Origin: a phage
DNA: 64,000 nucleotides
Reading direction: 5' to 3' (one strand)
Assembly (NCBI GenBank): GCA_012690745.1
Contig: GCA_012690745.1_4086.1
The position numbers and the translations under genes were made by a program. The first letter of the stretch is position 1. The number at the start of each line of letters is the position of its first letter. Below, in pieces: positions 1 through 61,902 of the stretch. The notes below the pieces were generated by a model, which saw only the letters and a list, made by a program, of their open reading frames with translations, was not told where the DNA came from and searched no databases.

Positions 1-213
1 TAGAAGATTGTCGGTATAATTGAAAAATACGAAGTATACACAAATGGAAAATGGTCTATATCAGTAAACTATATTGACCACACTAAACGAAAAAGATACT
101 TATATTGTGTTAATATTAATTGGTTCCCTGTTGATGACACTTTAGTTAATTAAAAATATACTTCCAGATAGATAAATAATATAAAGATGTCATTCCATAA
201 TAGGAGAATATAA

Positions 214-8432: not shown

Positions 8433-8460
8433 TTGACAAGTTGAAACGATGTGATATAAT
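8433..8460 (+). promoter_or_regulatory. sigma70-like early promoter P2 (TTGACA - 16 nt - TATAAT)
   Basis: ttgacaAGTTGAAACGATGTGAtataat, about 170 nt upstream of the AAA+ ATPase gene. Confidence 0.7.
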
Positions 8461-8629: not shown

Positions 8630-9955
8630 ATGACTACTCAAAACGATATCCTGAACGTTAAACTGACTCCAAAGAAAGCTAAAGAAGCAATGGCACTAGC
8701 TGACATGATTCAAGATAGCCTGATGATTTGGGGTAGCCCAGGTATCGGTAAGTCTGCAATCGCTCGTCAATACGCTGATGAAAATTACCCACTGCGTAAA
8801 GATAACGTAGCTAAAATCGAGTTCATGAAACAACAAATCGAAGCTGACCCTGAAAATGCTGATCAGCTACGCCGTGAACTGGCTGCATTTGAAGCAAAAC
8901 TAATCGACCAAGATACTAACTTTATCGATTTCCGTTTGTCTCAAATCGAACCAAGTGACCTTCGCGGTATTCCAGTACCAGAGAAGCTTTTCCGTAAAAC
9001 TGACGGTTCTCTTCTGAAAGAATCTGAGCTTGCCGAAGCAAAAGATTATGTAGCTGAAACTGCGGTAGTATGGGCTGCACCTAAAGTTCTGAAATTGTCC
9101 GAAGATTGGAAAGGTGTTATTCTGTTTGACGAAATTAACTCTGCAATGCCTATTGTTCAGGCAGCGTCTTATCAGCTAATCCTCGACCGTTGTGTTGGTG
9201 AGATGAAGCTACCTAAGACTGCACTGATTCTTGCAGCAGGTAACCGTGAAACTGATGGCGGTGTAACTTTCTCTCTTGCTACACCACTGCGTGACCGTAT
9301 GACTCACATTGAGATGATTCCTTATCATCAAGATTGGATTAACGATTATGCGATTGCAAAACGTTTGAACCCAGCAACTGTTGCGTTCATCAACAACACT
9401 GGTTCTAAGTACTTTAACACACTTAGTCCACAAGATCCTTCTCACAGTGGTGGTACTTCTCCACGTTCATGGGAAGCAGTAGCACGCTACGAAGATCTCA
9501 AGAAAACTAAGACAATTGATAAAGAAGTGTTCCGTGCAATGATTGCTGGTCGTGTTGGTGAAGGTGTTGCAACTGAATACATTGAGTACGTTGAGAACGT
9601 TGCTAAACTACCAGATACTATGTCTATTCTGTCTGGTGAAATCAAAGAAATCGACGCAACGCTGGATATTTCTGCGAACTACTTTATCACTCTGAACTTG
9701 GTTTATAAAATTATCGACCTGTTCAATGAGAAGCAAGAACAACGTCTACCAGTGGAAGAATGGGGTAAACTGTGTAACAACTTCATCACCTTCCTAGACC
9801 ATAACTTCTCTGCAACTCAAGCAGAACTGGCAGTACTGGCAATTCGTACCATCACGCTTCATAAGGTTGCGATTTCCATTAAAGATGTACCAGCGTTTAA
9901 AGATTTCATCGCTAAGTACTCTGAACTTGTACGTAAAGCACGCTCTCTTGGCTAA
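8630..9955 (+). CDS. AAA+ ATPase, MoxR/CobS-like (AAA_5-type)
   Basis: 441 aa. Walker A GSPGIGKS, Walker B VILFDEIN, downstream LILAAGNRE sensor-like segment. Strong RBS AAAGGAAA. Codon usage is GC-richer (CTG, CGT) than the structural genes. Confidence 0.8.
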   Translation: MTTQNDILNVKLTPKKAKEAMALADMIQDSLMIWGSPGIGKSAIARQYADENYPLRKDNVAKIEFMKQQIEADPENADQLRRELAAFEAKLIDQDTNFIDFRLSQIEPSDLRGIPVPEKLFRKTDGSLLKESELAEAKDYVAETAVVWAAPKVLKLSEDWKGVILFDEINSAMPIVQAASYQLILDRCVGEMKLPKTALILAAGNRETDGGVTFSLATPLRDRMTHIEMIPYHQDWINDYAIAKRLNPATVAFINNTGSKYFNTLSPQDPSHSGGTSPRSWEAVARYEDLKKTKTIDKEVFRAMIAGRVGEGVATEYIEYVENVAKLPDTMSILSGEIKEIDATLDISANYFITLNLVYKIIDLFNEKQEQRLPVEEWGKLCNNFITFLDHNFSATQAELAVLAIRTITLHKVAISIKDVPAFKDFIAKYSELVRKARSLG

Positions 9956-11501: not shown

Positions 11502-11529
11502 GGGACAACTTATAAAAATATGATATAAT
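11502..11529 (+). promoter_or_regulatory. sigma70-like early promoter (GGGACA - 16 nt - TATAAT)
   Basis: gggacaACTTATAAAAATATGAtataat; same spacing and ATGATATAAT -10 context as P2. Confidence 0.5.
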
Positions 11530-32504: not shown

Positions 32505-32532
32505 TAGACAAACCGTAAGAATGTGATATAAT
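32505..32532 (+). promoter_or_regulatory. sigma70-like early promoter upstream of the ClpA-like gene (TAGACA - 16 nt - TATAAT)
   Basis: tagacaAACCGTAAGAATGTGAtataat; same ATGTGATATAAT context as the other early promoters. Confidence 0.6.
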
Positions 32533-32572
32533 GTTTATTAATTAGAGTGACGTGAATCACATAGGAGAATAC

Positions 32573-34861
32573 ATGAATCTTACTCAATTGTTCAAAAAAA
32601 GCGACGAACTGGCAACATCTCTAGGTCATACATTCTTGACTATTGACCACGTAAGTGCCACAGTACTGACTATTGATAGCATCAAGAACGTATTTGAAGA
32701 TATGAACATTGATGCAGACAAACTGCACAACCGCCTGATGAACTATCTTAAAAATACAACAGTTCCACATGCACCAAAAAGTGTTAAAGATGAAGACGCG
32801 AATCGAACTTCACTTCTAGTGAATCGCGTTGTACATGAGCTTTCTAAAAAATCAGTTATTGAACAACTAAAAAGTGATGATTTTTCGATTGATGCATATT
32901 TTGTTCTATTCGAATGTCTGTCTTTCCCTAACACAGCACTAGAAGCTGCGTTAAAAGAAGAAGGTGTTAGCTGTACTGAAGCTGCACGTGCATTACAGAA
33001 ACACGTTGAGTCACTTGATAAGGGTATCAACTTACAAAGTATTAATGACGAACCGATTGGAGATAAAAAAGTGGCCCAACAGCAGCAATCATCTAAACAA
33101 AAAGGTTTGGAAGACTATACAACGAATCTAACTGCTCTTGCAAAAGAAGGCAAACTAGATCCTATGATTGGTCGCCAGAAAGAATTGTCTGCATTGATTG
33201 AGACTCTTGCTCGCAAAACCAAAAAGAATGCTATTCTCACTGGTGAAGCTGGTGTAGGTAAAACACAAATCATCGACGGACTTGCACAAGCTATTGCTGA
33301 TGGTAACGTACCTGAACACCTGAAAGACGTTGAAATTCTTTCACTAAATGTTGGTGCATTGACTGCTGGTACTAAGTATCGTGGTGAATTTGAAGAACGC
33401 ATCGACAATTTGCTAAAAGAACTAAAGAAACGTGAAAATACTATTGTTTTCATTGATGAAATTCATATTATGGTTGGGGCTGGTTCCGCAAGTAATGGTT
33501 CTATGGACATGAGCAATATGCTTAAGCCAGCACTTTCACGTGGTGAGATTCGTGTAATTGGTGCAACAACATATGATGAATATCGTAAAAATATCGAGAA
33601 AGATAGTGCATTAACTCGTCGTTTTATGAAAATTGACGTAGTTGAGCCGACAATTGATGAAACTCGTGCAATTGTTAATGGTTTGAAACCAACGTATGAA
33701 AAATTCCATAATGTTGAGTTCACATCTGATGCAATGGATGCTGTAATTTCTCTCAGTGATAAATTCCTGAAGAATAAGCACTTCCCAGATAAAGCAATTG
33801 ATCTAATGGATGCTGCTGCGGCTAAAGTTCGTTCACGTGACAACAATAGTAAGCTAATTACTGCCAATTTGATTCAAGAAGTTGTTGCTGGTATTGCCAA
33901 TTTGGATATCAACGTGGTTGCATGTACTGAAAGTGATCGTATGCGTAATCTACCAGATGCACTACGCTCACGTGTATACGGTCAAGAGGAAGCTATTCAA
34001 AAATTAGTTGATAACGTGATGGTAGCTCGTGCAGGACTGCGTGACAAATCTAGTGTTCAGGGTGCATTTATGTTTGTTGGACCATCTGGTACTGGTAAAA
34101 CAGAAATTACCAAAGCATTAGCAGACGCAACTGGTGCGGAACTCATTCGCTTTGATATGTCAGAATTTTCTCAAGAACATACTGTTTCTAAACTAATTGG
34201 TTCACCTCCAGGTTATGTTGGTCATGATTCTGGTAACGGTTTACTGTTGGATAAAATTGAGCAGTTCCCTAATGCAGTACTGTTACTTGATGAAATTGAA
34301 AAAGCAGATCGTAAAGTACTACTAACCTTCCTACAGGTTTTGGATGAAGGTCGTCTGACTGGTTCTCAAGGTAAAACTGTATATTTTAATAACGTAACTG
34401 TTATTATGACTACAAACCTTGGTGCGGCTGATTCAACAAAGCGTAGCATTGGTATGAGCGGTAGTGACACTGCACAGGACAAGGCAATTAAAGCATTCTT
34501 GCCACCAGAGTTTATTAACCGTATTGATAGTATCGTTACGTTTAAAGACCTAAGCAGTGAAGCTATTGACAGCATCATTGATAAGTTCATGGGTGGTTTG
34601 AATGAACAAGTCAAAGACCGTAATGTTAAAGTTACATTGACAAAAGCTGCACGTGAATGGCTTGCGAAAAATGGGGTAAAAGTTGGTATGGGTGCACGTC
34701 CAATGAAACGTACCATTGAACAAAACATTCGTGTACCACTAGCTAAAGAAATGTTGTGTGGTTCACTTGTGAATGGTGGTAACATTACATTTGATGTTAT
34801 TGATGGTAAAATCGGTATTAAGCCGAAACGTACCAAAGCTGTAGATAAAGCACTAGTATAA
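32573..34861 (+). CDS. ClpA/Hsp100-family AAA+ unfoldase (two nucleotide-binding domains, no ClpB-type middle domain)
   Basis: D1 Walker A GEAGVGKT and Walker B IVFIDEIH; D2 Walker A GPSGTGKT and Walker [10 protein letters not shown]; N-terminal Clp_N-like region. ORF track begins at a GTG (32552); ATG 32573 has RBS AGGAGA. Host-like codon usage. Confidence 0.85.
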
Positions 34862-34871
34862 AAAAAGAAAA

Positions 34872-34897
34872 GGAGAGCATTATGCTCTCCTTTTTTA
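34872..34897. terminator. bidirectional intrinsic terminator between convergent genes
   Basis: GGAGAGCA-tta-TGCTCTCC followed by TTTTTT; A-run on the 5' side. Confidence 0.75.
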
Positions 34898-37800
34898 TTA
34901 CTTAACTAATAATATATTTTTAATATCATTACCACTAACTTGTAGACTATCAGTGTATACTGAAAGATCTATAGTGTAACTATTTTGTGTGTAACGTTTT
35001 AACATATCATAATTACCTAAATTAATTCCATTGAAAGAATATGTGGTATTAAGTTTAAAATCATGTTCTGCACTATACATTACACCACGGAGTAAATTAT
35101 TTGCATTTCTAACTTCAACTTTTTCATATCCAATCGATATAATATCATTCATGTTCGCGGCTGAACCGGATAAAACATTATTTCTAATACTATAAGGACT
35201 TATTGATTTAGGTTGAGAAACATAGGTTGTATTTTCTTCACTAATGGTTGTGATGTTAGTAACAGTACCACCAACAACACCGATATACATACCGTCAACC
35301 ATTGGGAATCCATAAACCCATATCCCTTCATTATTTCTAAACGGTTGAATAACACTTGAATCATATTCGATAACGTTGATTTCTAAACTATCAGTCATTT
35401 TAGTTCTTGCCAATTCACTAAGAACTCCCGCACCCGTAATTGGTAAGTTATAACCGTTATCGATAGTAATTCCATCAACATCAAATATTTCATTGGAGAT
35501 TATCCAAACGTCAACGTCATCTGGTGTTATTCCGTCATTGTACTTACCACCATTTAAAGTAATATCGTAGAAAACATCATAATTAATTACATCAATGGTG
35601 TAATTTCTATTTTGTTCATACAATTTAATACCATTCTTGACAAATTCAGGGTCAGCAAATGTTCTAACACGAACAATGTTCAATGCTAGAGGCTGTACTG
35701 GCTCATTTTGTTGTGCAAGAGTGATGTTATCATAACGGAGAACTGCACCAGTACTCTCATCAATCAATTCAATCGTTTCCTTACCTGTATTTCTTACAGT
35801 GAATAGGATCGGAGTTGTATTGTTTTTGATGTTAGATACACGCAAGATTGTTTCCCATGTGTGATTTTGATATCTCACAAAATCTTCACCATCAGGAGTG
35901 AAAATCATCACCTTATCACCATCAGATAGGTCATTGTCAACTATTTCTGCTTCAGTTAAGCTATTAATAGATCTCACACGATAGAAATATTTTTCATCAA
36001 ACTTCGATGTTGTTTTATTAATATCATTTTCAATCTTAGCATATGAAGGAATACTTACAATTGCTTCTGTATGTTTATATGGATTGATAATTGCCATACC
36101 TTCAGTTTGATATCTGCTGTTATCACGTAATTGTACAAGAGATACATTGTCAAACCCATATCCATCAACTGTAAATCTAATTTGTCCAACATCACGCCCA
36201 GAAGGGTTTATGTCAGATATATCCACAATATAAGGATCAACTTCATCATCTTTAACTTCCCATTTTATTGAAGAAGTTTGAGATTCCAATGCTAGGTTAT
36301 CAAATGCATTCATATCATTGAAGTACTTAGCTTCAGTAATACTATCAAGTATATATTGATAATCAGAATACATTGGATTATTTTGATCTAGTGGTAAATC
36401 ATCAAGATTTATTTCAGCTAGTTCAACCATTTCACCATTTGTGATAAAATAATCTTCCATGAAATCATCAATACTTTGTTCATCAGGTATACTTTGATAT
36501 ACACCGTTAACATTTAAGTAAACATATTTTCGTGGAATCATTGTAATTGCATAGATATCAATTGGGGTCTTACTAAGAATCTCTTCAGCTTTTTCGTACT
36601 TATCAGTAGCGTCTTTGTCGAATAACCCTCTCATACCTGCTAATACGTGAATAGCATCAGTATAGAAACGGGTATCACCACCTACTTCATCATAACGATA
36701 AACATATACACCATACTCAACTTCAAGTTTAACTTTTACTTCATAGTCTGATGCGTCAGGATTTTTATCTTTAATTAATGAAATGTATTTTTGATACAAT
36801 TCACTGCTTATTTCAAAATATCCATAGTTATAATCATTACTAGAAGAAAAGCCTAATGGAAGTCTAGTACTAGGATTGTCATTATAAGTAAGTCCACTAA
36901 ATCCACATCCAACTTCATCGTGAATTTTCTCATCACTTATATCTTTATAAAGTTTCAAACGGTTTGCCAATGTGTTATACTGAACATATTGTCTAAGGTC
37001 AGTAAACATATCGTTATGCGTTGATTCTTTATAAACACGTTCCAATGTAGCAGTGAATTCATCAGTTGCTTCTAAATCTTCCGCATGGTCTTTATACCAC
37101 TGGTTAACGCCATATGCTGTTCCTAGTGTTACATCCAATTCTGGATAGTAGATTTGCATTTGATAAGCAATAAGAAGATCGAAAGTTTCTTCACTATATT
37201 CTGGGAAAGAATATATATAACGTTGTAATTCATAGTTACTAACAGCATCCTTTTCATTGGATTGATATTTGTTATTAACACTTACTAATTCATTTATGCT
37301 TGCCAAATCTTCATTTGGTTTACACTGAATATTATCATAATGCATAATAATATCAATTTCTTGGAATCTTCTATTTGGTGTAACGAAATCACTTGGTAGT
37401 GAACCTACCTGTTCCCATTTTTGGGTAATTTCATTAAATTGAGCGTACTCATAATCCCAAATATCTTTTTCAGTTTTGATCCAAGAACCGTCAACGAAAA
37501 TATATCCATTAGGATCTAAATCATTACATAGACCTTTTATTAAATCATCATCAGATGTCTTTTGCTCTATTTGTGAACGAATTTTAGTTCTATAAGGTTT
37601 AACTTCTTCAAAATATTCAACAATTTGATTAATCAAATTATCGTTTGAATAGTTTTGAACTAATGATTGTTCCAAACCAACAATATAGATATATGATGTT
37701 TTAAATACCCAATCCACAACACTTTGTTCAACATGTACATATTTGACCATATCAAAAACAATTTCGCTTTGATGTAAATCGAAAGAATTTTTGAGTAAAG

Positions 37801-40800
37801 CTAGTGCTTTACGAACGTTGATTTCACGATTGCTTAGTGAACCATTATCATTATGAACACTATAATCTGCGTAAAGCATATCATTGAGTTCAACTGTACT
37901 GTTTTCACGACCAATCGCTTTCCAATAAATTGAATCGCGTGATTGTGATTTAATATACAATGTCCAAATGTTTTCACTATCGGTAACTCTGATAATATCG
38001 CCAACTTGGTAGTTTTTAGTATTAGCATCTTCTAAGCTTGACTCTTGAGTATAAGTCGTGTTACTATCATATCCAACATCATACCAATCAGCATATGACC
38101 AGTACTGAGTCATGTCTAATGAGGTTCCTAGTGATTCAACATAATCAGATTGTTTAATCATTTTATGTTGTCCCTCACCTTTGTTTTCTAACGTTATAGT
38201 AACAACACTACCCGCGTTTGCTGGACTATTCATTAACTGAATATATCCATTTTCGTCGAAGTGAATAAAATAAACAGCACTAGAAGTTAATGGATTTGGT
38301 AGATATCCACTAGTACTTAAAATAACAGCGTCATTTTCTTTAAATTTATCACTTTCAACTGCAATAACTAATTCATTATTGTAAGACAACACACGGAAAG
38401 AAACTTCATTAGGGTTAACTTCAGTGGTTTTAACATTAAACACATCTTCCATAACAACACTATTAGTGGTTATGTTTTGTGACCTATAATAATTATTAGC
38501 ACTTTCTACAAAGTTTCTACGAGCTTCTATAACATTTTGGAACCAAGTTTTGTTTGATCCTAAACCGTTATCAACATCTGGATATAATAAATTAATCACA
38601 GAACCTGATTCAGTTGTTTCTTGACCAATTAGTGAGTTCCACATTGAATCCCAAATTAGTGGGTTAAAGTTATAGCTGTCACCTTCTTTACATAGTTGAT
38701 ACTGGTCATGTTTAACAACTTCAGTACTATCCATGTAATAAGAAACAGTTAAAATACTGGTATCATCATTCACTTTAAATTGCATATTACTAAGAATAAA
38801 CGAGTTTTCATTTATTGGAGCGAACCAAGGAATGTTTAGCTGTGTTGGATCTTTAATAATACGAGCAATGTCAGTACATGATTTCGTTCTGGTATGTAGT
38901 GGTGGTACATAAATTGTATCACGTACCCAGAAATAGTATTTTGTTACATAACTATCAGTTGAACTATCATATTCCAAAAATGTACTATAATTATCTTCAA
39001 GTGCAGTTCCACTTGGTAGATACATAGTATTATTTTTGTTTTTCTTAGCAACATCTTTACAGTATTTGTCCCAGTTATATGGCTCAACTGGTGAACAAAC
39101 CCACTCTAACACATCAATGGTACTATGTGGTAACAAACGTCCCCAGTTGTAACGTTTGTATTCATTGGTTGCATCAATATCAACATTACCGTCTGCGTCA
39201 TAAATTGCACGAGTATAATCCAAATAAAATGCAGTGCTAGTGTTCCACCATACTTGACCAACTTTATCAGCACCCCAAGCCTGGATTAACTCTCCATTAC
39301 TATTATACTGTGCAGGATCAACTGGTGAAGTATATGTTACGTTTTGCATAGCCGCACCTGGAATAACACCATTAATTGGGTCATAAACGTTTAGATATAG
39401 CTCAGTAATGTTAGTACGTTCATCATATGTCGTTGGACGATCAAATAAAGTACTTTGTGGTGCTTTAAAACTATATTTCTTGTCAATGTAAGCTTGACGA
39501 TCATCAGTACTGGCAAAACGTGATACATAACGATACAAACGTGGACGTGTATCTGGATCAGTAAATTCAATATCAATAGAAGTGTCAAATGGAACTACCA
39601 TAACTTTAGGATCAGAACCAGCAGTATAATATTGACTTTCTACTGTTAAAGTATCTGGCATAAAGTTAGTTTCATCAACAAAATAATAATAATCACCATC
39701 TTCAAGTGGTACATTATCAGTTAAAGTTACTTTACAAAATTGTTCAGCATACACATCGGTATTTTCAATAGGTGTTATAGAAACCATTTGTACATTAGTA
39801 TCAACCAATTCAAAAATGTTCCACAAACCATTACCGTCTTTAAACATCCACACAGATTCAGGATTTTCACCTTTACCATTAGTATAAGTTATGCGGTCAT
39901 TATATGCAGTACTGAAATCTTTTGTTGTGTACGATACTTCATCCAATGTTACTGGACCAATATCTGGAAGTTGGATGTTTTCACTTCTTCCACTACGCAT
40001 TGGGAATGAGAACTTACCATTTGGACGTGTAATCCAACGAGGATCTTTACCTTGCTCACCGAAGTATACAATATGATTACCATTACCATTTGAAGTTGCA
40101 TTTACATCAAAAGAAACCATTTGAGGTTGTTGTTTAAATTGGTCATTGATTAGTTTAAATTGAAGGTTTTTCTTACCATCAATATTACCATATGTACCAA
40201 TTTTAAATGCCCATTCTTGTAATGCTTTATATTCATCAGTGTCATATGATTTAGAAACACGAAGTACACGTTCTAAAACTTGGTTAGTACCTTTATCGTG
40301 AATGAATCCTTTATAGAAATCAACACGACTAACATCACTACTAATCATACGCTGTAGATAATCACGAGATTGATAACCAATCAAATGGTTTGACAACTCT
40401 TGTAATTGTACATCACTTACTGGAGTTTCACTATCATAATAATGTTGGAAATCCGACACTAATTTTTCAAATGATGGTAGTGTTCCAGCTTCCAAGATAA
40501 TAAATCCAGGAGCTTGTAGGCGACCAGTCCATGAACCAGTAATATATCCATACATTTTAATTAGTTCTTGAATAGAACCATATGTTGGCTGATAAATGTA
40601 ATCACCAAAAATAGTTTTATCATCAAAAATAACAGCATGTTCATATGAACACAAACTTAAACGAATCAATGCAATGCGTTTATTAGATTCTAAAGTTCTA
40701 ACAGTGAAGATATTTCCAATACGAGAAGTTTCAATTTCATATTGGCGAATACCTTGGTTATTATCATCAAGTAATGACCATACACCACCATTATTTTGCG

Positions 40801-43800
40801 TAATAGATTGTACTGAACCAAAGTCTGCCCCAAATTTAGCGTTTGCAGCACTTGGGGTACAAGAAATAAATTCACCAGTTACTAGAGAATTCTGACTCCA
40901 GATCACGAAATCTTTAGCAATAGTGTTCCAATCTTGTTGAGCACCACTATCATTTACATCTTCAAAAATCCAACCATGTTCTTTAAGATATTCACCATAT
41001 CCACAAATAAAAGTATAAACTTCTTGGTAACTATTGAAAACTTTACCATATTCAATTGAAGCTTCAGACTTCCATTCATTATAATGAACAACATTACGGT
41101 TTTCCAATTTAAGAGTTACTTTTCTACCATTTTTTACTGGAAGTTTATATTTAAATTTAGCACCAACTAGATCATATCCATCAATCTGATATGCACTACC
41201 ATTCCAAGTAATTTTGATCGCACTCATTTGCTCATCACGGATATTATTAGAACGAACAAGACCAATGGTTTGGTTTTCTTGTGAAATAAGACCGAAAGAT
41301 TTAGCATTGAATGTTAGCTGATCTGCTTTAGTAAATCCTCCAATTTTATGACCAACATTTATATAAGAAGAACGAACTACATCCCCATACTTGGTGGTAA
41401 TATTTTTATTTTGATACATCAAATGGTCACTTACAAACATTTGATAACCAATTGTTCTTGTGCTATTTTCACCATGAACTACTGTATTTTTATCAAAATT
41501 AATACGCTTACGTGTATCACCATAAAGGAATTGTGAACCATCAGTGAATACTTCTTTTAAGTTATCGTTGCGGGTATCCCAGAAATAGTTAGCAAATTGT
41601 GCTGGTTTAGCTTTATACAAAAGCATCATTTGGTCATATGCAAACAATGTAGTGTTCATGTATGTAAATTCCATGTCACCCATATCACCATATGTCCAAG
41701 GTTCTGCTCTATGATTTAAAGATCCAGACACTAAACCTAAAATTTCAGGTGCAATATATTCAACCACACAAATATCAATACCAGAAGATGTTTTATTTCC
41801 AGTTTTTGTAATTTTGAATGGCTGTACACCAAATCTTTTATATTTGTCATATTGACCACGACGATCACCAAATAAAATAGTTCCAGTACTGCTATCTCCA
41901 ATAGTTCCGTCAATATCCCAAAGACCACTAGGAACTAAATCACCTTGCTCATTCATAACAAGTGCTTCATATACATATACAACATCACTATCACGTTCAC
42001 CAACTTGAACAGCCGTTGGTTCGTATTCTTGGTTCCACCAAGTTGGACGTTGTGTAAAGCCAAACATTTCCCACGGATGGGTAGCTGGGCGATATGTACC
42101 ATATTGGTCAGTGTAAATGGCACGCCATGAACCACGTGCAGGAATTTCAGTACTTTGACCATTAACTACATAATAAGTGCCAGTATAGTTCCAAGTTCTC
42201 CAATTGTTAGGATCATAATCATGTGTACTATTACTGATACCATTAGTTGCGGTGAAGTTAATGTATCCACGTAGTAATAATGTTTGTTTCTCTTCAGCAC
42301 TATATTCAGTTTTAGTGAAATATGGTGTAGGGAAAAGGTCATCACTATTCAATACTGGTACGTAATCAACATCTTTGAATTTATTATCAATACTATTAAA
42401 AATTCTATTTTCTAATTCATATACAACATCATCCATTTTATCAACACCATTGATAACACGGTATGCTTTGGAAATAATACCAGTATGACTGATGTTATAA
42501 CAGCTTGGTTTACTACCAGCAGTGAGGAATGTCGCTTTTTCTGGTACATATGCTTGAAGAATACCTAAGAACTGTGGTGTTGGTGGTATAAATGCACGAA
42601 TGAATCCAGAAGTACTTCCAACATTATCATAATAGAATGGGAATGAACTATCACGTCCCATATTAATAGTAGTTAAAATTGCATCAACAATGTTTGCAGC
42701 ACTATTTTGTAAAAAGTCTGATGGATTTTCATCATACATACGAAGCATTTGTGTATTAAATTTATTAATGAATCTAAAATATTCAGATTGCATAAACATA
42801 GTTGCTTCAAACAAATCAATATCTTCATTTGCAGTATGTGCCATCAATGGAAGCATAGATGCTTCATTTTGGATAATTTTAGTACCTACGCCATTATTAA
42901 CCAATCCTTTAGCCAAACGTTCTTCATAGTCATTGAAATCATCAGAAGAACCACGTGTAATGTTCTTTTGAATAATATCCTGAAAATGTAAAGTGTAGTC
43001 ACCTTGGTTAATGTATATAATATTAGAATTATATGGGTTATTTTGTAGGTTGATTGGAACTTCATATGCACCTAATTCTTTATTAGGAGTTACAGTACTG
43101 CTATAAGTTCTAATTTGAATAACAGAATCTTCATCCAATTCTACAGTACTATCTAGAGTGATGCTTTGTACTTGACCTTTTGAAACATTTTTGGTATATT
43201 TGGACACATCAACACCATCAACCACAACTTCAATAATATCAGAATCATTATCTAAAACTTTTTGTGCCAATTCGAATGTATGGTCATATTTTACAATCTG
43301 AACACCATCACCAGTAATTGGATGCCAATCTAGATAAGTTTCACGGTCAGCTTTATAGTACTGATATGTTCTATCAACTTCAATAACATATGCATACATA
43401 CCATCAACTGGTTCTTTAAAAACTTCCATATCATAAACAGTACTGAATACACGATACATATCAGTACGTTGGACTTGTGGAGTTTGTTTTACAAATTGTT
43501 TAGAGTACTCTTCTGAACGAACCCAATCGGTTTGAAGATTCATTTCATTATTTTCATCAATAATGTTATAATAGTATAAACCATCAATTTCAACTTCTTT
43601 TCCAAGATGGTCATAGGTATAACGTTGGGATTGTAAAAAGTTTTCATAAATGTAATAATTATAATCACCAAGTTCAATGTTATATCCATATACACTATCA
43701 GTTGCATAGTTGTAATTTATTTTAAAACCAAACAACTCTGAACCTTTAAAGTTACTTGATGGATATGTAGTACTGTTGTCAAGTTTGATACCATTACGAT

Positions 43801-44899
43801 CATAAAGTTGGAATTTAGGGAATACGTTAACACTAGTTTTTGATTGTGCACGAACCCACAAAGATCCATTCCAGTACATAGAACTATTACCATACTCATT
43901 ACCTTTAGTGATTAGAACAACATCACCATCTTGAGGTTCACCACTTGGGCGTGATTCGGTTTCTTCTTCTGGATCTAGTGCTAAACCATAAACACGAGTA
44001 CCATCTTGCATTTTTTTCACATATACATTATAAATTCTATTGTTTTCACCATTGTTACCAATACTGGTGAATAGAATACGCATTCCATCTTGCGGAATAA
44101 TACCATCAATACGTATACCACTATTAATATCTTTTTGAACGATATCTTCAGGTTTAATAATATCAGAGAACAGATCAACAGTTCCACGGAATTTTGTACC
44201 GTAGTTAATTAGCTCAATATTTTTATTATATTCAATAATTGGTGCACGTGCACGAATAAAACGTGAATCTTGCATTAATTCTTCAGTTAATATTGAGCCA
44301 TCTTCTAATGTTTCACCTAAAGTATACCAAAAGTTTTGTAGTGACCATGTATTACCATTAAGTGCTCCACGTTCCATTACAATGTAATCAGGTGAAGTAA
44401 TATTATAAGAGTTTTTAGTATCCCAAAGATATGAGCTAAAATTGTTCATTTTATTTGGGTTAATAGCTGGAGTCCATGCATAAAACTTACCGTTGAACAA
44501 ACGGCTTTCATTATCGGTTAGTGCTCCATAATGATTCATGTATCCAACTAGATCATCATAAAATTGAATTGAACGAATTGTCGAATCATCATTTTTTGAG
44601 ACGTAAGCAGTGGACAACTGATAAAGTTGACGTGCTACAGTACTTTCATGTAAGAAGATATTACCAGCAGCGGCAGGAGAACCCATATCACCAATATAGC
44701 CGTCAACTAATTCGTTTTCAGCCGGATTAAACCATTGTTGAATAACATCATCACTGACTTTTTGAATATCTTCTAAGCCTTGCATCCACTCAGGCAATCT
44801 TTTAATAAAAAGCTTCTTCTGTACTGCTTCAGCCATCTGTGTAGGTTGAAACTTAAAATTATTAGTCATTTTTGGACTCCATATAATTCGTTCATTCAT
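34898..44899 (-). CDS. giant virion protein (3333 aa), probably baseplate-wedge/fibre-network component
   Basis: Uninterrupted 10-kb ORF directly downstream of the baseplate-J-like gene in the baseplate operon; Y/N/D/T-rich beta-type composition. A second in-frame ATG (44869) with a GGAG RBS may be the true start. Confidence 0.7.
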   Translation of the reverse strand: MNERIIWSPKMTNNFKFQPTQMAEAVQKKLFIKRLPEWMQGLEDIQKVSDDVIQQWFNPAENELVDGYIGDMGSPAAAGNIFLHESTVARQLYQLSTAYVSKNDDSTIRSIQFYDDLVGYMNHYGALTDNESRLFNGKFYAWTPAINPNKMNNFSSYLWDTKNSYNITSPDYIVMERGALNGNTWSLQNFWYTLGETLEDGSILTEELMQDSRFIRARAPIIEYNKNIELINYGTKFRGTVDLFSDIIKPEDIVQKDINSGIRIDGIIPQDGMRILFTSIGNNGENNRIYNVYVKKMQDGTRVYGLALDPEEETESRPSGEPQDGDVVLITKGNEYGNSSMYWNGSLWVRAQSKTSVNVFPKFQLYDRNGIKLDNSTTYPSSNFKGSELFGFKINYNYATDSVYGYNIELGDYNYYIYENFLQSQRYTYDHLGKEVEIDGLYYYNIIDENNEMNLQTDWVRSEEYSKQFVKQTPQVQRTDMYRVFSTVYDMEVFKEPVDGMYAYVIEVDRTYQYYKADRETYLDWHPITGDGVQIVKYDHTFELAQKVLDNDSDIIEVVVDGVDVSKYTKNVSKGQVQSITLDSTVELDEDSVIQIRTYSSTVTPNKELGAYEVPINLQNNPYNSNIIYINQGDYTLHFQDIIQKNITRGSSDDFNDYEERLAKGLVNNGVGTKIIQNEASMLPLMAHTANEDIDLFEATMFMQSEYFRFINKFNTQMLRMYDENPSDFLQNSAANIVDAILTTINMGRDSSFPFYYDNVGSTSGFIRAFIPPTPQFLGILQAYVPEKATFLTAGSKPSCYNISHTGIISKAYRVINGVDKMDDVVYELENRIFNSIDNKFKDVDYVPVLNSDDLFPTPYFTKTEYSAEEKQTLLLRGYINFTATNGISNSTHDYDPNNWRTWNYTGTYYVVNGQSTEIPARGSWRAIYTDQYGTYRPATHPWEMFGFTQRPTWWNQEYEPTAVQVGERDSDVVYVYEALVMNEQGDLVPSGLWDIDGTIGDSSTGTILFGDRRGQYDKYKRFGVQPFKITKTGNKTSSGIDICVVEYIAPEILGLVSGSLNHRAEPWTYGDMGDMEFTYMNTTLFAYDQMMLLYKAKPAQFANYFWDTRNDNLKEVFTDGSQFLYGDTRKRINFDKNTVVHGENSTRTIGYQMFVSDHLMYQNKNITTKYGDVVRSSYINVGHKIGGFTKADQLTFNAKSFGLISQENQTIGLVRSNNIRDEQMSAIKITWNGSAYQIDGYDLVGAKFKYKLPVKNGRKVTLKLENRNVVHYNEWKSEASIEYGKVFNSYQEVYTFICGYGEYLKEHGWIFEDVNDSGAQQDWNTIAKDFVIWSQNSLVTGEFISCTPSAANAKFGADFGSVQSITQNNGGVWSLLDDNNQGIRQYEIETSRIGNIFTVRTLESNKRIALIRLSLCSYEHAVIFDDKTIFGDYIYQPTYGSIQELIKMYGYITGSWTGRLQAPGFIILEAGTLPSFEKLVSDFQHYYDSETPVSDVQLQELSNHLIGYQSRDYLQRMISSDVSRVDFYKGFIHDKGTNQVLERVLRVSKSYDTDEYKALQEWAFKIGTYGNIDGKKNLQFKLINDQFKQQPQMVSFDVNATSNGNGNHIVYFGEQGKDPRWITRPNGKFSFPMRSGRSENIQLPDIGPVTLDEVSYTTKDFSTAYNDRITYTNGKGENPESVWMFKDGNGLWNIFELVDTNVQMVSITPIENTDVYAEQFCKVTLTDNVPLEDGDYYYFVDETNFMPDTLTVESQYYTAGSDPKVMVVPFDTSIDIEFTDPDTRPRLYRYVSRFASTDDRQAYIDKKYSFKAPQSTLFDRPTTYDERTNITELYLNVYDPINGVIPGAAMQNVTYTSPVDPAQYNSNGELIQAWGADKVGQVWWNTSTAFYLDYTRAIYDADGNVDIDATNEYKRYNWGRLLPHSTIDVLEWVCSPVEPYNWDKYCKDVAKKNKNNTMYLPSGTALEDNYSTFLEYDSSTDSYVTKYYFWVRDTIYVPPLHTRTKSCTDIARIIKDPTQLNIPWFAPINENSFILSNMQFKVNDDTSILTVSYYMDSTEVVKHDQYQLCKEGDSYNFNPLIWDSMWNSLIGQETTESGSVINLLYPDVDNGLGSNKTWFQNVIEARRNFVESANNYYRSQNITTNSVVMEDVFNVKTTEVNPNEVSFRVLSYNNELVIAVESDKFKENDAVILSTSGYLPNPLTSSAVYFIHFDENGYIQLMNSPANAGSVVTITLENKGEGQHKMIKQSDYVESLGTSLDMTQYWSYADWYDVGYDSNTTYTQESSLEDANTKNYQVGDIIRVTDSENIWTLYIKSQSRDSIYWKAIGRENSTVELNDMLYADYSVHNDNGSLSNREINVRKALALLKNSFDLHQSEIVFDMVKYVHVEQSVVDWVFKTSYIYIVGLEQSLVQNYSNDNLINQIVEYFEEVKPYRTKIRSQIEQKTSDDDLIKGLCNDLDPNGYIFVDGSWIKTEKDIWDYEYAQFNEITQKWEQVGSLPSDFVTPNRRFQEIDIIMHYDNIQCKPNEDLASINELVSVNNKYQSNEKDAVSNYELQRYIYSFPEYSEETFDLLIAYQMQIYYPELDVTLGTAYGVNQWYKDHAEDLEATDEFTATLERVYKESTHNDMFTDLRQYVQYNTLANRLKLYKDISDEKIHDEVGCGFSGLTYNDNPSTRLPLGFSSSNDYNYGYFEISSELYQKYISLIKDKNPDASDYEVKVKLEVEYGVYVYRYDEVGGDTRFYTDAIHVLAGMRGLFDKDATDKYEKAEEILSKTPIDIYAITMIPRKYVYLNVNGVYQSIPDEQSIDDFMEDYFITNGEMVELAEINLDDLPLDQNNPMYSDYQYILDSITEAKYFNDMNAFDNLALESQTSSIKWEVKDDEVDPYIVDISDINPSGRDVGQIRFTVDGYGFDNVSLVQLRDNSRYQTEGMAIINPYKHTEAIVSIPSYAKIENDINKTTSKFDEKYFYRVRSINSLTEAEIVDNDLSDGDKVMIFTPDGEDFVRYQNHTWETILRVSNIKNNTTPILFTVRNTGKETIELIDESTGAVLRYDNITLAQQNEPVQPLALNIVRVRTFADPEFVKNGIKLYEQNRNYTIDVINYDVFYDITLNGGKYNDGITPDDVDVWIISNEIFDVDGITIDNGYNLPITGAGVLSELARTKMTDSLEINVIEYDSSVIQPFRNNEGIWVYGFPMVDGMYIGVVGGTVTNITTISEENTTYVSQPKSISPYSIRNNVLSGSAANMNDIISIGYEKVEVRNANNLLRGVMYSAEHDFKLNTTYSFNGINLGNYDMLKRYTQNSYTIDLSVYTDSLQVSGNDIKNILLVK

Positions 44900-48410: not shown

Positions 48411-48475
48411 AATTTATTCCTTTAAATCAGTAAAGTACTAGTTCAGTACTGGGAATTATATATAGAAATATTTAT

Positions 48476-54700: not shown

Positions 54701-55521
54701 TAAATGAATCCTCCTTTACGTAATAGTTCACCACGTTTGAATGCATTGAGGTTGAACGTTTTAGTCATATAATCCGATGTTGGTTGTTCTTCAAGTTGTA
54801 ACATAACTGAGATTTTTTGTGGAACCCAAACTTCATCTTGTGGGTTCATATATCCAGTACTTCTAAGTTGTTCGAAGAATTTTCTACTATCCATGTCGGA
54901 TAAATTAAAAGTACTATCGCTACTATTCAACGGAACTTGAATATAAGAAACATCATTTGGGTAAGTAAAATTATAAGATTTTAAAATAACAGGAATATCA
55001 TTATATGTATAACGACCATATCCACTTAGAAGTAAGATTGGTGGTGGTGCACCTGCAATTGCGAGTTCGGGGTTATTAGCCGAAGCAGCTTGTCTACCAA
55101 AATCCATCAACGAAACAGAACGTATAAAATGAACACATGCCAACGCATACATAGCTTCTGCTGCTGTATTCGCATAAAATTCACCCTGAATCGTGAAAAC
55201 TGTATTAGTAGTGTTCTTATAGTTGTTATAGTTACTGTTAGTATGTATAGGGGACTGTGTTTCATACTGAATTGACCTTTGTTCAGTAATTGTTGGTGTT
55301 ACAGTCCAAACCAACCCATTAGTTGGACGCAGAAACGAAAGTAGAGTTGGTTCGGAGCTATCTCCAAAATCACCATATACATAGTTAGCACCTGCGGCTT
55401 TAGGTCGTAATCGAATTCTACGATCAATCATCTTTTTGATTCTCCATAATAAGGGAACATTTGATGTATTTATACGTGGGACAAACTGCTTTTTGGTGCT
55501 ATAATAACATTGATGGTACAA
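54700..55521 (-). CDS. hypothetical baseplate/tail-associated protein (first gene of the minus-strand baseplate operon)
   Basis: ORF track begins at a TTG (55521); an in-frame ATG at 55431 is preceded by GGAGA and may be the real start (about 243 aa). Confidence 0.45.
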   Translation of the reverse strand: MYHQCYYSTKKQFVPRINTSNVPLLWRIKKMIDRRIRLRPKAAGANYVYGDFGDSSEPTLLSFLRPTNGLVWTVTPTITEQRSIQYETQSPIHTNSNYNNYKNTTNTVFTIQGEFYANTAAEAMYALACVHFIRSVSLMDFGRQAASANNPELAIAGAPPPILLLSGYGRYTYNDIPVILKSYNFTYPNDVSYIQVPLNSSDSTFNLSDMDSRKFFEQLRSTGYMNPQDEVWVPQKISVMLQLEEQPTSDYMTKTFNLNAFKRGELLRKGGFI

Positions 55522-55562: not shown

Positions 55563-56402
55563 ATGACAAATAGACCAAAGCGTAAAAAGTATCTCAATAA
55601 TGCTGATTTACTTCGTGAAATACAAAAAAGTAAAATTTCATATTGCTGGTTATTAGACAAATCATATAGTATGTATGATTATATTGTTTTTCATGAGTCA
55701 GGAATTACTGCTGAGTTACTAGAAAAAGCTAAGGCAGCACGAATTAAACGACTGAACAATGAAATGCTTGATAGTATTCGTGAAAAGGAAAATATGAGTG
55801 CTAAAAAAGCTAAAGAATATGCAGATGAACACAATTTAGTTATCACTGACGTTCCAATTGATGAAGTTGTTATTCGTGTTATTACAGATGAACATATTCC
55901 ACCAGATACTAGAGTTAACTTTGAACCATTCAAGCATTATATTGTAGATAATGAAGGTATTCTCTATGAAGTTTGTCGTTCTCACTGGAAAGGCGACCTT
56001 GAAACTGGTGAATTCAGTACTGTTCATGGTAAAATTACAAATGAACTTGGGAAGATGTTCATTAAACTTGCAGAGGAAATCTCACACAAATCTAATTACA
56101 GAAACTATACATACTTAGATGAAATGATGGGTGATGCAAGAATACAATTAGTTAAAAACGCACTTCTCTTTAAAGAGAGCATTCTTTATAAAAAAGATAA
56201 ACCAGCAGTTCAGCTAAATCCTTTCTCTTACTATACATCATTCGTAAACAATAGTTTTCGTTCTATATTGAATAGTGAGAAAAATGTTCGAAATATACGT
56301 GATGATTTACTTGAAATGCATGGCTTTACGCCATCACATACACGTCAAATTGAAATTGAATTGAACATGATTGAAAGGAAAAATGAAGATGGCTCTGTTT
56401 GA
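55563..56402 (+). CDS. late-transcription sigma factor, T4 gp55-like (with internal insertion)
   Basis: 279 aa; N-terminal KKYLNNADLLREIQKSK and C-terminal NPFSYYTSFVNNSFRSILNSEKN resemble gp55 segments as recalled from memory; sits directly upstream of gp47/gp46 as in T4. RBS GGAGAG. Confidence 0.5.
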   Translation: MTNRPKRKKYLNNADLLREIQKSKISYCWLLDKSYSMYDYIVFHESGITAELLEKAKAARIKRLNNEMLDSIREKENMSAKKAKEYADEHNLVITDVPIDEVVIRVITDEHIPPDTRVNFEPFKHYIVDNEGILYEVCRSHWKGDLETGEFSTVHGKITNELGKMFIKLAEEISHKSNYRNYTYLDEMMGDARIQLVKNALLFKESILYKKDKPAVQLNPFSYYTSFVNNSFRSILNSEKNVRNIRDDLLEMHGFTPSHTRQIEIELNMIERKNEDGSV

Positions 56403-60086: not shown

Positions 60087-60146
60087 AGCTGTTTGTCCTG
60101 TTTTGTTAAATAAAGTATATTAAAAAGTTTTGTGAGGTACAATAGA

Positions 60147-61094
60147 ATGGCTAAAATGACACAACAACAATTTATAGATAAATCAATTAATCTACATGGT
60201 AGTATTTACACCTACAATAACACCGTGTATGTTAATGCACATCAACCAGTGTCTATTACATGTAAAATTCATGGTGACTTTACGGTAGTTCCTAATAAAC
60301 ATATTTCCGCAAAGCAAGGTTGTCCGGTTTGTTCTGATATTGCAAAGAAAGAACGTAAATCTAAAAAGTCACTGGAGTCATTCTTTACTGAAGCAAAAGA
60401 AGTACACGGTGATAAGTATGATTACTCTAAAGTGTTTTTCAACATTCGTTCAGAGAAAATTACTATCATATGCAAAGAAGAAGGTCATGGTGAATTTAAT
60501 CAGGTAGTTAGTAATCACCTAGCTGGACAGGGTTGCCCTGAATGCTCCAAAGCACTTATTGGTTTAAAGAAAAGAACACCAGAAGATGTATTCTTTGAAG
60601 ATTGTAAGTACATTCATATGGATGCATACGACTACTCCAATACAAAATATAATGGTATGTATGAAACAATTACACCAGTATGCAAACGTCATGGAGAATT
60701 CACAGTACTGGCAACTAAACATTATCATAGAAAGCAAGGTTGTCCGGTTTGTTCTGACATGGAACTAAAGTCAAGACCAGTTATTGAAATTCAGAATTTT
60801 TTAAAAGAGTATGATATAATATTTGAAATGGAAAAGAAGTTTGATGGTTGTAAAAATATAAACCATTTACCATTTGATTTTTATATTCCTTCACTGAATC
60901 TTCTAATAGAGTATGATGGTATTCAACACTTCAAACCAATAGAGTACTTTGGTGGTAAACAAGCTTTAGCTGAACAGCAAAGAAATGATGAAATAAAAAA
61001 TCAATTCTGTTTTAATAACAACATTACTCTTCTTAGAATAAAGTATTTCGAAGATCATATTAAAATCATCAAAGACTATATATCAAAACTTTAA
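60147..61094 (+). CDS. homing-endonuclease-like protein: three tandem zinc-ribbon modules plus C-terminal PD-(D/E)xK (DUF559/Vsr-like) nuclease domain
   Basis: Three repeats of HG(D/E)FTV....KH....KQGCP(V/E)CS; C-terminus FDFYIP...LLIEYDGIQHF. ORF track start 60132 is a GTG; ATG 60147 follows GTGAGG. Confidence 0.6.
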   Translation: MAKMTQQQFIDKSINLHGSIYTYNNTVYVNAHQPVSITCKIHGDFTVVPNKHISAKQGCPVCSDIAKKERKSKKSLESFFTEAKEVHGDKYDYSKVFFNIRSEKITIICKEEGHGEFNQVVSNHLAGQGCPECSKALIGLKKRTPEDVFFEDCKYIHMDAYDYSNTKYNGMYETITPVCKRHGEFTVLATKHYHRKQGCPVCSDMELKSRPVIEIQNFLKEYDIIFEMEKKFDGCKNINHLPFDFYIPSLNLLIEYDGIQHFKPIEYFGGKQALAEQQRNDEIKNQFCFNNNITLLRIKYFEDHIKIIKDYISKL

Positions 61095-61200
61095 AATATG
61101 ATATAGTTTTTTTAGAACCAAGTAATAAAAATGTTACTTGGGTTTTTATATGTGTAAAAGTTGGAACTAAGTACTTAATGAATATTTTTATAAAAATAGT

Positions 61201-61228
61201 GAGACAACTTTAAAGTTTGTGCTATAAT
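61201..61228 (+). promoter_or_regulatory. sigma70-like promoter (GAGACA - 16 nt - TATAAT) preceding the ORF-free region
   Basis: gagacaACTTTAAAGTTTGTGCtataat. Confidence 0.45.
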
Positions 61229-61234
61229 GTTTGT

Positions 61235-61665
61235 TGTAGTAATGACAATCCTGTTGAATGCAGAAATGCATATAAATTAGAACCTGATCCTATCGAAAAT
61301 GTAGATGGCAGATGAGCAGTTCAACAGTGCGATGAGCAAAAGAAACCCGTTAGATGTGGGCATAGTTTGAACCCCTCACGGCAATGCGGCTCAATAAAGA
61401 ACTCCGATAAGCATACAGAGAGTTCCTAGATAGACATATAAGGATCGCACCTTACCAGATTTGCTAAGGGAGTTTATTAAGTGATTTTAATAAACAGCCT
61501 GAAGTTTGATTGTATAGACTTTCAGGTGAGTGTCAGGATGATTAAGACTGACGACCGTTGCACATGACTGCGATAGAGAGAAACAGAGCAACCCGCTTTC
61601 GTTCTTAATATATTTTTAAGAAATTCGCAATACAATAAATGCTGAAACCATCAGCGTCAAGAAAT
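61235..61665 (+). ncRNA. candidate structured non-coding RNA locus (no ORF; flanked by promoter and terminator)
   Basis: About 430 nt without ORFs in a tightly packed genome; locally higher GC; internal hairpin CCTGAAGT...ACTTTCAGG (61497-61527); repeated GATGAGCA. No tRNA cloverleaf recognised by eye. Confidence 0.3.
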
Positions 61666-61690
61666 AGAGACTTCATTGTCTCTTTTTTAT
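61666..61690 (+). terminator. intrinsic terminator closing the ORF-free region
   Basis: AGAGAC-ttcatt-GTCTCT followed by TTTTTTAT. Confidence 0.7.
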
Positions 61691-61902
61691 TGTCTTCATT
61701 CCCCTGCGGGGGGATGAAAATGTCCTCAACAAATCCCGTCAAGTATTAAATCTTTTAAAGTTCTTTATAATTAATTTAATTAAATGAATATGAGTTACGT
61801 AGTAACGAATATTCTTCAGCTAACGAATGAAATGAGTTAGATGAATCCAATAATATTAAAATTAATCCTTTCATAATTCAATTCAAATAATTCTGTAGTT
61901 TA

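Follow-up and report, generated by a model that had tools for sequence, protein, structure and literature searches.

The closest described counterpart of the gene treated here is ClpA of Escherichia coli, a protein of 758 amino acids (aa) that belongs to the ClpAP/ClpS system (PDB 1ksf, 6w1z, 7uiv). It consists of an N-domain, two AAA+ modules (D1 and D2) and a D2-small domain, has no coiled-coil middle domain (M-domain), and is encoded in the same genome as ClpP and ClpS. To our knowledge, no phage-encoded Hsp100/Clp unfoldase has been functionally characterised. The genes themselves have been noticed: a ClpA-like gene was described as conserved in Rak2-like phages (PMC6102473), Iyer et al. 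2021 reported ClpA/ClpX chaperones, ClpP and ClpS in jumbo phages and considered possible translocase or assembly roles (PMC7824862), and a 2025 paper counted ClpA among the core genes of a different lineage of large phages (PMC12619734). The ClpA-like family of jumbo phages is also filed as VOG02072, in "moraphages". The present analysis concerns the ClpA-like gene in a stretch of 64,000 nucleotides (nt) of phage DNA (contig GCA_012690745.1_4086.1 of assembly GCA_012690745.1), referred to as the window. The existence and naming of this gene are already known, as it is annotated ClpA-like and mentioned in several papers, and it is no new kind of element. What the analysis contributes is a correction of the questions of its partner and its codon usage, and its placement in the early/middle regulon of the phage. 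The gene is real and intact. As judged from sequence comparison, there is about an even chance that its product is the unfoldase, expressed early or in the middle period, of a ClpAP(S)-type protease encoded by the phage itself.

The whole window aligns to positions 265,699-329,398 of phage 121Q at 99% identity, and the ClpA region is 99.6-99.9% identical to many Asteriusvirus genomes, including PBECO4, 121Q, slurp01, phAPEC6 and SHEFM2K. By this measure, the window is part of an Asteriusvirus (121Q/PBECO4-type) jumbo coliphage genome and not a contaminating host contig, a possibility that the first-pass annotation had raised. The encoded protein is 100% identical to SHEFM2K, slurp01, SP27 and other entries annotated as ClpA or ATP-dependent protease, and is a full-length member of phrog_4871 (1035 bits). 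Open reading frame (ORF) prediction yields an uninterrupted frame at 32552-34861 (+) that begins with GTG. This GTG was rejected as the start codon, as the ATG at 32573 has a ribosome binding site and agrees with three annotated records; it is the start annotated in 121Q gp581 ("ClpA-like") and in phAPEC6 gp246c. The gene start of 32505 assumed earlier is actually the first base of the promoter -35 box.

The gene product is a complete ClpA-type double-ring ATPase (class I Hsp100, M-domain-free) encoded by a phage. The first-pass annotation, which had described a complete two-ring Clp/Hsp100 ATPase without the ClpB middle domain, was right in this respect. Pfam domains detected in the 762 residues are Clp_N, AAA, AAA_lid_9, AAA_2 and ClpB_D2-small. 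The Clp_N match is weak and covers only the first repeat (21.7 bits against a cutoff of 20.7); the double Clp_N repeat of ClpA is present in the AlphaFold2 (AF2) model as eight helices within aa 3-148. Both Walker A/B pairs, both tyrosine pore loops, the arginine fingers and sensor-2 are intact, as in E. coli ClpA. Their key residues do not vary among 38 aligned homologues, and all motifs are under purifying selection. Among the Hsp100 models of NCBIfam, ClpA (TIGR02639) scores best with 755 bits, followed by ClpB with 634 and ClpV with 548 bits. Against solved structures, a single colinear match was obtained to residues 20-734 of E. coli ClpA (604 bits), whereas matches to ClpB, ClpC and Hsp104 break into two stretches on either side of their middle domain. 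The AF2 model has a mean predicted local distance difference test (pLDDT) score of 79.6 and contains D1 and D2 without a coiled-coil insert in D1-small, while the loop of aa 624-630 is disordered. Alignment, the length of 762 aa and the AF2 model all indicate that an M-domain of the ClpB/ClpC/Hsp104 type is missing. Foldseek matched the model to the ClpA chains of ClpAP complexes with 46-48% identity and target-normalised template modelling scores (TMt) of 0.73-0.83.

The phage protein thus shares its domain order and nearly its length with E. coli ClpA, from which it differs in sequence: identity is 41% overall, 48% in D1-D2 and 21% in the N-domain. With ClpB/Hsp104 and ClpC it has the double AAA+ core in common, at 42-44% identity in structural alignments. 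ClpB is not known to have a ClpP-docking loop. While ClpB/Hsp104 disaggregases combine an M-domain with the lack of this loop, the phage protein is M-domain-free and carries a tripeptide loop.

The first-pass annotation had seen no ClpP gene in the window and had left the protein either to pair with host ClpP or to act as a stand-alone unfoldase. The window is indeed free of ClpP and ClpS (tblastn, all E > 0.3), but this pair of options overlooks genes elsewhere in the phage genome. The partner search covered the whole 121Q genome and identified gp464, located outside the window at a distance of approximately 84 kb from clpA, as ClpP. It scores 141 bits with Pfam and 155 bits with the NCBIfam ClpP model, compared to 51 bits with the model for "ClpP-related head maturation protease". 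The Ser-His-Asp triad is intact (Ser in GYAASMG, His in MCHQ, Asp in DRD), and the N-terminal axial-loop sequence IPYVVE..GER.YD is kept. By these features gp464 is a bona fide ClpP, so that clpA and clpP occur in the same genome, as in the ClpAPS system. Head maturation is covered by a separate T4 gp21-type capsid protease, gp601. Two further 121Q proteins were considered and are not used in the model: gp473 ("ClpP-like") is under the Pfam cutoff and has a hydrophobic N-terminus, and gp475 ("HslV-like") gives only a weak match. A ClpS-like protein of 181 aa, gp48, is encoded as well, so that the same-genome occurrence of ClpP and a putative ClpS-fold protein is another feature shared with E. 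coli.

These genes are conserved together. Among the genomes listed by tblastn, ClpA and ClpP are both present in Asteriusvirus, RaK2, GAP32, Serratia phage BF, and Erwinia, Yersinia and Salmonella 7t3 phages, as well as in the distant phages PA5oct and Atu_ph07. The ClpS-like gene was found in 72 records that belong to the Rak2-like clade of enterobacterial and Xanthomonas phages, CBB included, and CBB is among the listed matches of both ClpP and the ClpS-like protein.

A ClpP-binding IGF/IGL loop in D2 had been suggested as a check. A tripeptide is found exactly at the position of the E. coli IGL, but it reads IGM. Compared with the docking motif [LIV]-G-[FL], the pattern hydrophobic-Gly-hydrophobic is retained and the third residue is non-canonical. 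The loop is flexible (AF2 pLDDT <50 for aa 624-630), 2 aa shorter than in E. coli ClpA and variable in the clade, where LGL, IGA, IGV (RaK2), LGM (GAP32), VGM, MNM (7t3) and MSM occur. The tripeptides VGF and IGF are found in XaC1, PA5oct and Atu_ph07, with a canonical IGF loop in PA5oct and Atu_ph07. The ClpP side of the interface was aligned at the positions Y60, Y62, F82, L114 and R192, which we take to form the docking pocket of E. coli ClpP. All five are kept in the ClpP of Atu_ph07 and some in that of PA5oct. The ClpPs of the enterobacterial clade carry Y60T/V/S, F82S/N/C/Y and L114G, plus a conserved C-terminal tail of about 25 aa. In seven genomes, IGF/VGF loops go with canonical or near-canonical pockets, and IGM, IGV, LGM and MNM loops with changed ones. 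Loop and pocket thus appear to drift together. This is suggestive of a ClpA-ClpP pair private to the phage and would hardly be expected if the loop were constrained by a host ClpP that is nearly invariant. It may instead reflect relaxed docking in a stand-alone unfoldase.

The early-type promoter that had been assigned to the gene is confirmed as a near-consensus σ70 promoter with an extended -10 element (TGaTATAAT at 32524-32532); in a promoter scan, 11 of 12 consensus positions matched in addition to the TG. It belongs to a family of the form GACA[AC]-N12-TGnTAnAAT, of which the 121Q genome contains 18 sites, all on the + strand, compared to 0.2 expected. Five intergenic TGnTATAAT sites of the window have GACAA exactly 12 nt upstream. 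In 121Q, family members precede genes for single-stranded DNA-binding protein, primase, exonuclease, topoisomerase II, ThyA/DprA, an AAA ATPase and DNA polymerase, and also tRNAs, the late sigma factor (window ORF 55563-56402) and copies of a non-coding RNA (ncRNA) described below. Since the motif is common to replication genes, we infer that the ClpA gene is part of an early/middle regulon read by the host σ70 polymerase and not of the late structural class that surrounds it. The RaK2 and GAP32 orthologues likewise have extended -10 promoters. The promoter family as a whole probably represents an early/middle regulon set within the late structural region.

The ClpA protein gp246c is absent from the phAPEC6 virion proteome (62 proteins), although both neighbours, gp245 (382 kDa) and gp248, were detected, which points to an action inside the cell. 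The ClpA gene of PA5oct likewise lacks the electrospray ionisation tandem mass spectrometry (ESI-MS/MS) flag that its neighbours carry.

The reading of the gene as the unfoldase of a phage-encoded ClpAP(S)-type protease builds directly on the anatomy and motifs of the gene, its promoter class, the ClpP and ClpS-like genes of the same genome and the co-conservation of the three. According to the proposed mechanism, host σ70 RNA polymerase would transcribe clpA from its early/middle-class promoter, alongside the replication genes and the late sigma factor. The protein would assemble as a two-ring AAA+ hexamer, in which substrates would be unfolded by ATP hydrolysis in D1 and D2 and by the KYRG and GYVG pore loops. 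The IGM loops would most likely dock phage ClpP gp464, in preference to host ClpP, and substrates would be threaded into it. The divergent ClpS-like gp48 would probably modulate the substrate choice as an adaptor at the fast-evolving N-domain. Likely targets would be host proteins and/or misfolded or surplus phage proteins in the long, protein-heavy infection by a jumbo phage.

A more specific version of this model, put forward only tentatively, is that Rak2-like phages possess a private, orthogonal ClpA-ClpP-ClpS machine. In this proposal, IGM/IGV/LGM loops, pockets of the T60/S82/G114 type and a re-specified ClpS-like adaptor would insulate the system from the Clp network of the host; its expression would start with that of the replication genes, and it would destroy selected host proteins, e.g. 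defence or competing proteostasis factors. A virus equipped with the unfoldase, peptidase and adaptor of an ATP-dependent protease would be a clean system for studying the viral rewiring of host proteolysis, and could show how the docking specificity between AAA+ unfoldases and ClpP evolves.

Several observations weigh against assigning the gene to a phage ClpAP(S)-type protease. The protein does not reach the NCBIfam cutoffs for ClpA equivalogs (755 against 993 bits for TIGR02639, 654 against 1350 bits for NF008263) and is therefore a divergent member of the ClpA family, not an equivalog of bacterial ClpA. The clpA, clpP and clpS-like genes are scattered in the phage genome and form no operon, whereas clpS and clpA share one in E. 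coli. The Pfam ClpS match of gp48 is weak (24.7 bits, cutoff 23). Compared to E. coli ClpS, gp48 is extended by 70 aa at its N-terminus and has changes in the N-degron pocket (N34D, D36P, M40A, H66N), as well as K84F, while E79 is kept; a ClpS adaptor combines such a pocket with a contact surface for the ClpA N-domain. Furthermore, there is little conservation of the docking tripeptide, with IGA and IGV among its variants and loss of the glycine in 7t3-like phages (MNM/MSM). ClpP docking could thus be dispensable. The co-variation of loop and pocket covers seven genomes only, at pocket positions assumed from E. coli ClpP. ClpP orthologues were found in virion preparations of CBB (1 peptide) and PA5oct, which hints at a different, possibly head-related, role of ClpP; the same virion lists also contain ligase and FtsH-like proteins. 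In the literature searched, no functional study of any phage ClpA was found.

An alternative, albeit an unlikely one, is that the protein is a stand-alone unfoldase or remodelling chaperone for giant virion parts, such as the adjacent 3333-aa protein or the baseplate and tail. The location of the gene speaks for this, as it lies within a tail/baseplate module beside a virion protein of ~3330 aa in 121Q, RaK2 and GAP32 alike, and directly follows a DnaJ-like gene near structural genes in PA5oct and Atu_ph07. Part of the clade has a degenerate docking tripeptide, 121Q also encodes GroES-like, DnaJ-like and Hsp70-like proteins, and virion-assembly or translocase roles have been proposed (Iyer et al. 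2021, PMC7824862). However, the promoter class is that of the replication genes and not of the late structural genes, and the strand is opposite to that of the structural neighbours. Also against a remodelling role are the failure to detect ClpA in phAPEC6 virions, the co-conservation of ClpP, and the fact that ClpA-type proteins are without the M-domain that disaggregases need. The 3333-aa protein and the large PA5oct tail protein gp184 share no homology (BLASTP E > 1), so that the proximity to a giant protein has not been inherited from a common ancestor. A conserved linkage to a homologous giant protein was hence rejected, and synteny holds only within the enterobacterial Rak2-like phages.

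Rather unlikely is a second alternative, in which phage ClpA docks host ClpP and redirects host proteolysis to substrates chosen by the phage, while the phage ClpP serves another purpose. This would not be mutually exclusive with a phage-encoded protease. As known from ClpA, ClpX and ClpC, the interface logic of ClpA and ClpP is generic across bacteria, the IGM has the hydrophobic-Gly-hydrophobic pattern at the exact IGL position, and host ClpP is already there when an early/middle gene is expressed. The ClpP orthologues in the virion preparations of CBB and PA5oct count in its favour as well. On the other hand, phages whose hosts are closely related differ in the tripeptide (IGM, LGL, IGA, IGV, MNM, LGM), although enterobacterial ClpP is highly conserved; a loop that has to fit an unchanging host pocket would not be expected to vary in this way. 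In addition, a phage ClpP that is catalytically intact and has axial loops of the ATPase type is retained in every ClpA-bearing genome.

Host-like, CTG/CGT-rich codon usage had been noted in the first-pass annotation, in contrast to TTA/AAT-rich structural genes, and had been attributed to host acquisition or to selection for early, high expression. The comparison sets were the other genes of the window, 232 phage ORFs and 17 E. coli genes. The contrast is right in direction, but small. The GC content at third codon positions (GC3) is 0.25 in the ClpA gene, 0.20 in the other window genes and 0.56 in E. coli, and CTG provides 15%, 4% and 53% of the leucine codons, respectively. Relative to the other window genes, TTA falls from 35% to 11% of leucine codons, AGA from 26% to 0% of arginine codons and ATA from 18% to 0% of isoleucine codons; AAT is unchanged (62% of asparagine codons versus 65%). 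The per-codon log-likelihood for E. coli versus phage is -0.32 (rank 37 of 232), inside the phage distribution (mean -0.44, standard deviation 0.14) and far from the E. coli genes (+0.22 to +0.81). The codon usage is thus phage-like, and only the rarest codons are avoided: AGA, ATA, TTA and AGG together account for 1.2% of its codons, where the genome averages 5.2%, and they are similarly scarce in the capsid and sheath genes. This scarcity fits selection for efficient translation and gives no indication of host origin; selection for efficient expression of the ClpA gene is plausible.

A search for relatives revealed no sign of the recent host acquisition that had been considered. In a large protein search, the closest matches are jumbo-phage proteins from ~350-kb phage contigs that run without a break from 93% down to 54% identity and span the PBECO4 group, RaK2, SE_PL/7t3, GAP32 and Erwinia and Xanthomonas phages. 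Below 54% there is a gap, followed by 45% and ~40% identity among the most distant matches listed. The ~40% matches are probably cellular ClpAs, because they are 58-60% identical to E. coli ClpA. Identity to individual orthologues is 75% for RaK2 ORF069, 62% for GAP32_229, 41% for PA5oct gp186 and 38% for Atu_ph07 gp292. In RaK2 and GAP32 the gene occupies the same locus as in the 121Q group, where it is monocistronic, while in PA5oct and Atu_ph07 it directly follows a DnaJ-like gene. Among the phage proteins, divergence is much faster in the N-domain than in the core (45% and 69% identity to GAP32, respectively). Taken together, this points to an old acquisition of phage clpA followed by vertical descent, not to a recent host capture; clpA is thus best seen as a long-established core gene that has become adapted to the phage. 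A recent capture of clpA from the host, or an origin as a host-derived or contaminating segment, with the gene kept without specific function, is very improbable and in effect refuted: its GC content (0.385, compared to 0.349 in the neighbours) and its surplus of CTG, CGC and CGT would fit, but identity to E. coli ClpA is low (41%, N-domain 21%), its codon usage resembles that of other phage genes and is remote from that of E. coli, three genera have the gene at the same locus with promoter and terminator conserved, the motifs are under purifying selection, and the window is 99% identical to 121Q.

Table 1. Features of the ClpA-like gene and its surroundings; positions refer to the window.
Feature	Position	Strand	Details
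Window members of the promoter family	8452-8460, 11521-11529, 32524-32532, 55497-55505, 61220-61228	+	
σ70-type promoter	32505-32532	+	-35 TAGACA (32505-32510), 16-nt spacer, -10 TATAAT (32527-32532)
Shine-Dalgarno AGGAG	32563-32567	+	5 nt before ATG 32573; read directly from the sequence
ClpA-like coding sequence	32573-34861	+	including stop codon; 2289 nt, 762 aa, 83.6 kDa
N-terminal Clp_N-type domain	32573-33022	+	aa 1-150; eight helices in two repeats (AF2: H3-16 through H134-148)
Disordered linker after N-domain	aa ~151-180		AF2 pLDDT <50 for aa 156-176
D1 AAA+ module	33119-33898	+	domain and motif matches
D1 Walker A GEAGVGKT	33242-33265	+	
D1 pore loop KYRG	33374-33385	+	
D1 Walker B FIDEIH	33449-33466	+	
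D1 Arg fingers in LTRRF	33611-33625	+	
D2 AAA+ module plus D2-small domain	33935-34807	+	domain and motif matches
D2 Walker A GPSGTGKT	34079-34102	+	
D2 pore loop GYVG	34211-34222	+	
D2 Walker B segment	34280-34306	+	
IGM tripeptide	34448-34456	+	aa 626-628; aligned with E. coli ClpA I617-G618-L619
D2 Arg finger in NRID	34517-34528	+	
D2 sensor-2 GARP	34691-34702	+	
Bidirectional intrinsic terminator	34866-34896	both	hairpin AAAAGGAGAGCA-tta-TGCTCTCCTTTT; common to the convergent 3333-aa virion gene

As previously described for this locus, the gene stands alone between structural operons. It is monocistronic, and its neighbours on both sides are virion genes on the opposite strand, which form a divergent operon upstream and a convergent one downstream. 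The upstream neighbours are a 497-aa structural protein and a gp15-like sheath completion protein; downstream are the 3333-aa virion protein and a gp6-like baseplate wedge. A bidirectional terminator, by which the gene had been described as flanked, does exist, but there is only one, at the 3' end. Its hairpin folds at -19.1 kcal/mol (z = -6.4), with an A-run on one side and a T-run on the other. The same convergent terminator is present in RaK2 and GAP32, where the changes in the stem are compensatory. The 3333-aa virion protein (34898-44899, -), which is convergent with ClpA, has zero Pfam matches. Its size and position are kept in RaK2 and GAP32, and it is present in phAPEC6 virions.

The window contains a further AAA-type ATPase of 441 aa (8630-9955, +; 121Q gp563, phrog_1297), whose gene is preceded by two tandem promoters of the GACA[AC]-N12-TGnTAnAAT family. 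It has no AGA, ATA, TTA or AGG codons at all and, at rank 5 of 232, the most E. coli-like score among ORFs >400 aa. The phAPEC6 virion proteome includes a 49.5-kDa "ATPase", gp265c, which may be its orthologue. Outside the window, the gene of the ClpS-like gp48 adjoins that of the KTSC-domain "DnaJ-like" gp49, following an IF3-like gene (121Q 34461-35623). The position of a DnaJ-like gene beside gp48 in 121Q and directly before ClpA in PA5oct and Atu_ph07 suggests an ancestral chaperone/Clp cluster that was later dispersed.

Two differences distinguish the window from 121Q. Between the gp6-like wedge and gp25-like genes (~48425-48455), it is without the HNH endonuclease gene of ~767 bp that 121Q has there (gp584). 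Conversely, it contains an insertion of approximately 1 kb (60087-61168) that carries a 315-aa ORF (60147-61094) with matches to DUF723 and a treble-clef zinc finger, probably another mobile nuclease.

The ncRNA mentioned above is a candidate large structured RNA (~430 nt) that forms a family in Rak2-like jumbo phages and may matter more than the ClpA finding. The copy in the window lies at ~61236-61720 (+), within a region of 61197-61720 that includes the promoter. This early/middle promoter (61203-61228) drives ~460 nt without an ORF >45 aa. Paralogues in 121Q are located at 90279-90727, 192836-193204 and 247457-247999, giving four copies, all in unannotated gaps. Each copy has an extended -10 promoter, no ORF >45 aa and a hairpin plus T-run, followed by a conserved CCCCTGCGGGGGG hairpin. 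DNA identity is 67-75% across the Rak2-like genera, and the element was found in 71 phage records, at four to five places per genome. Searches against Rfam 15 and, with nhmmer, against the ncRNA001/002 regions of PA5oct gave no match. An alignment of 19 copies contains 14 helices with 66 base pairs, 39 of which show compensatory double changes. Of the cells counted, 97.7% are paired; sliding the partners lowers this to 38-43%. The observed covariation score of 0.455 compares with 0.079 at most in the controls, and none of 500 shuffles reached the observed values. By its covariation, the element looks like a previously undescribed family of large structured ncRNAs.

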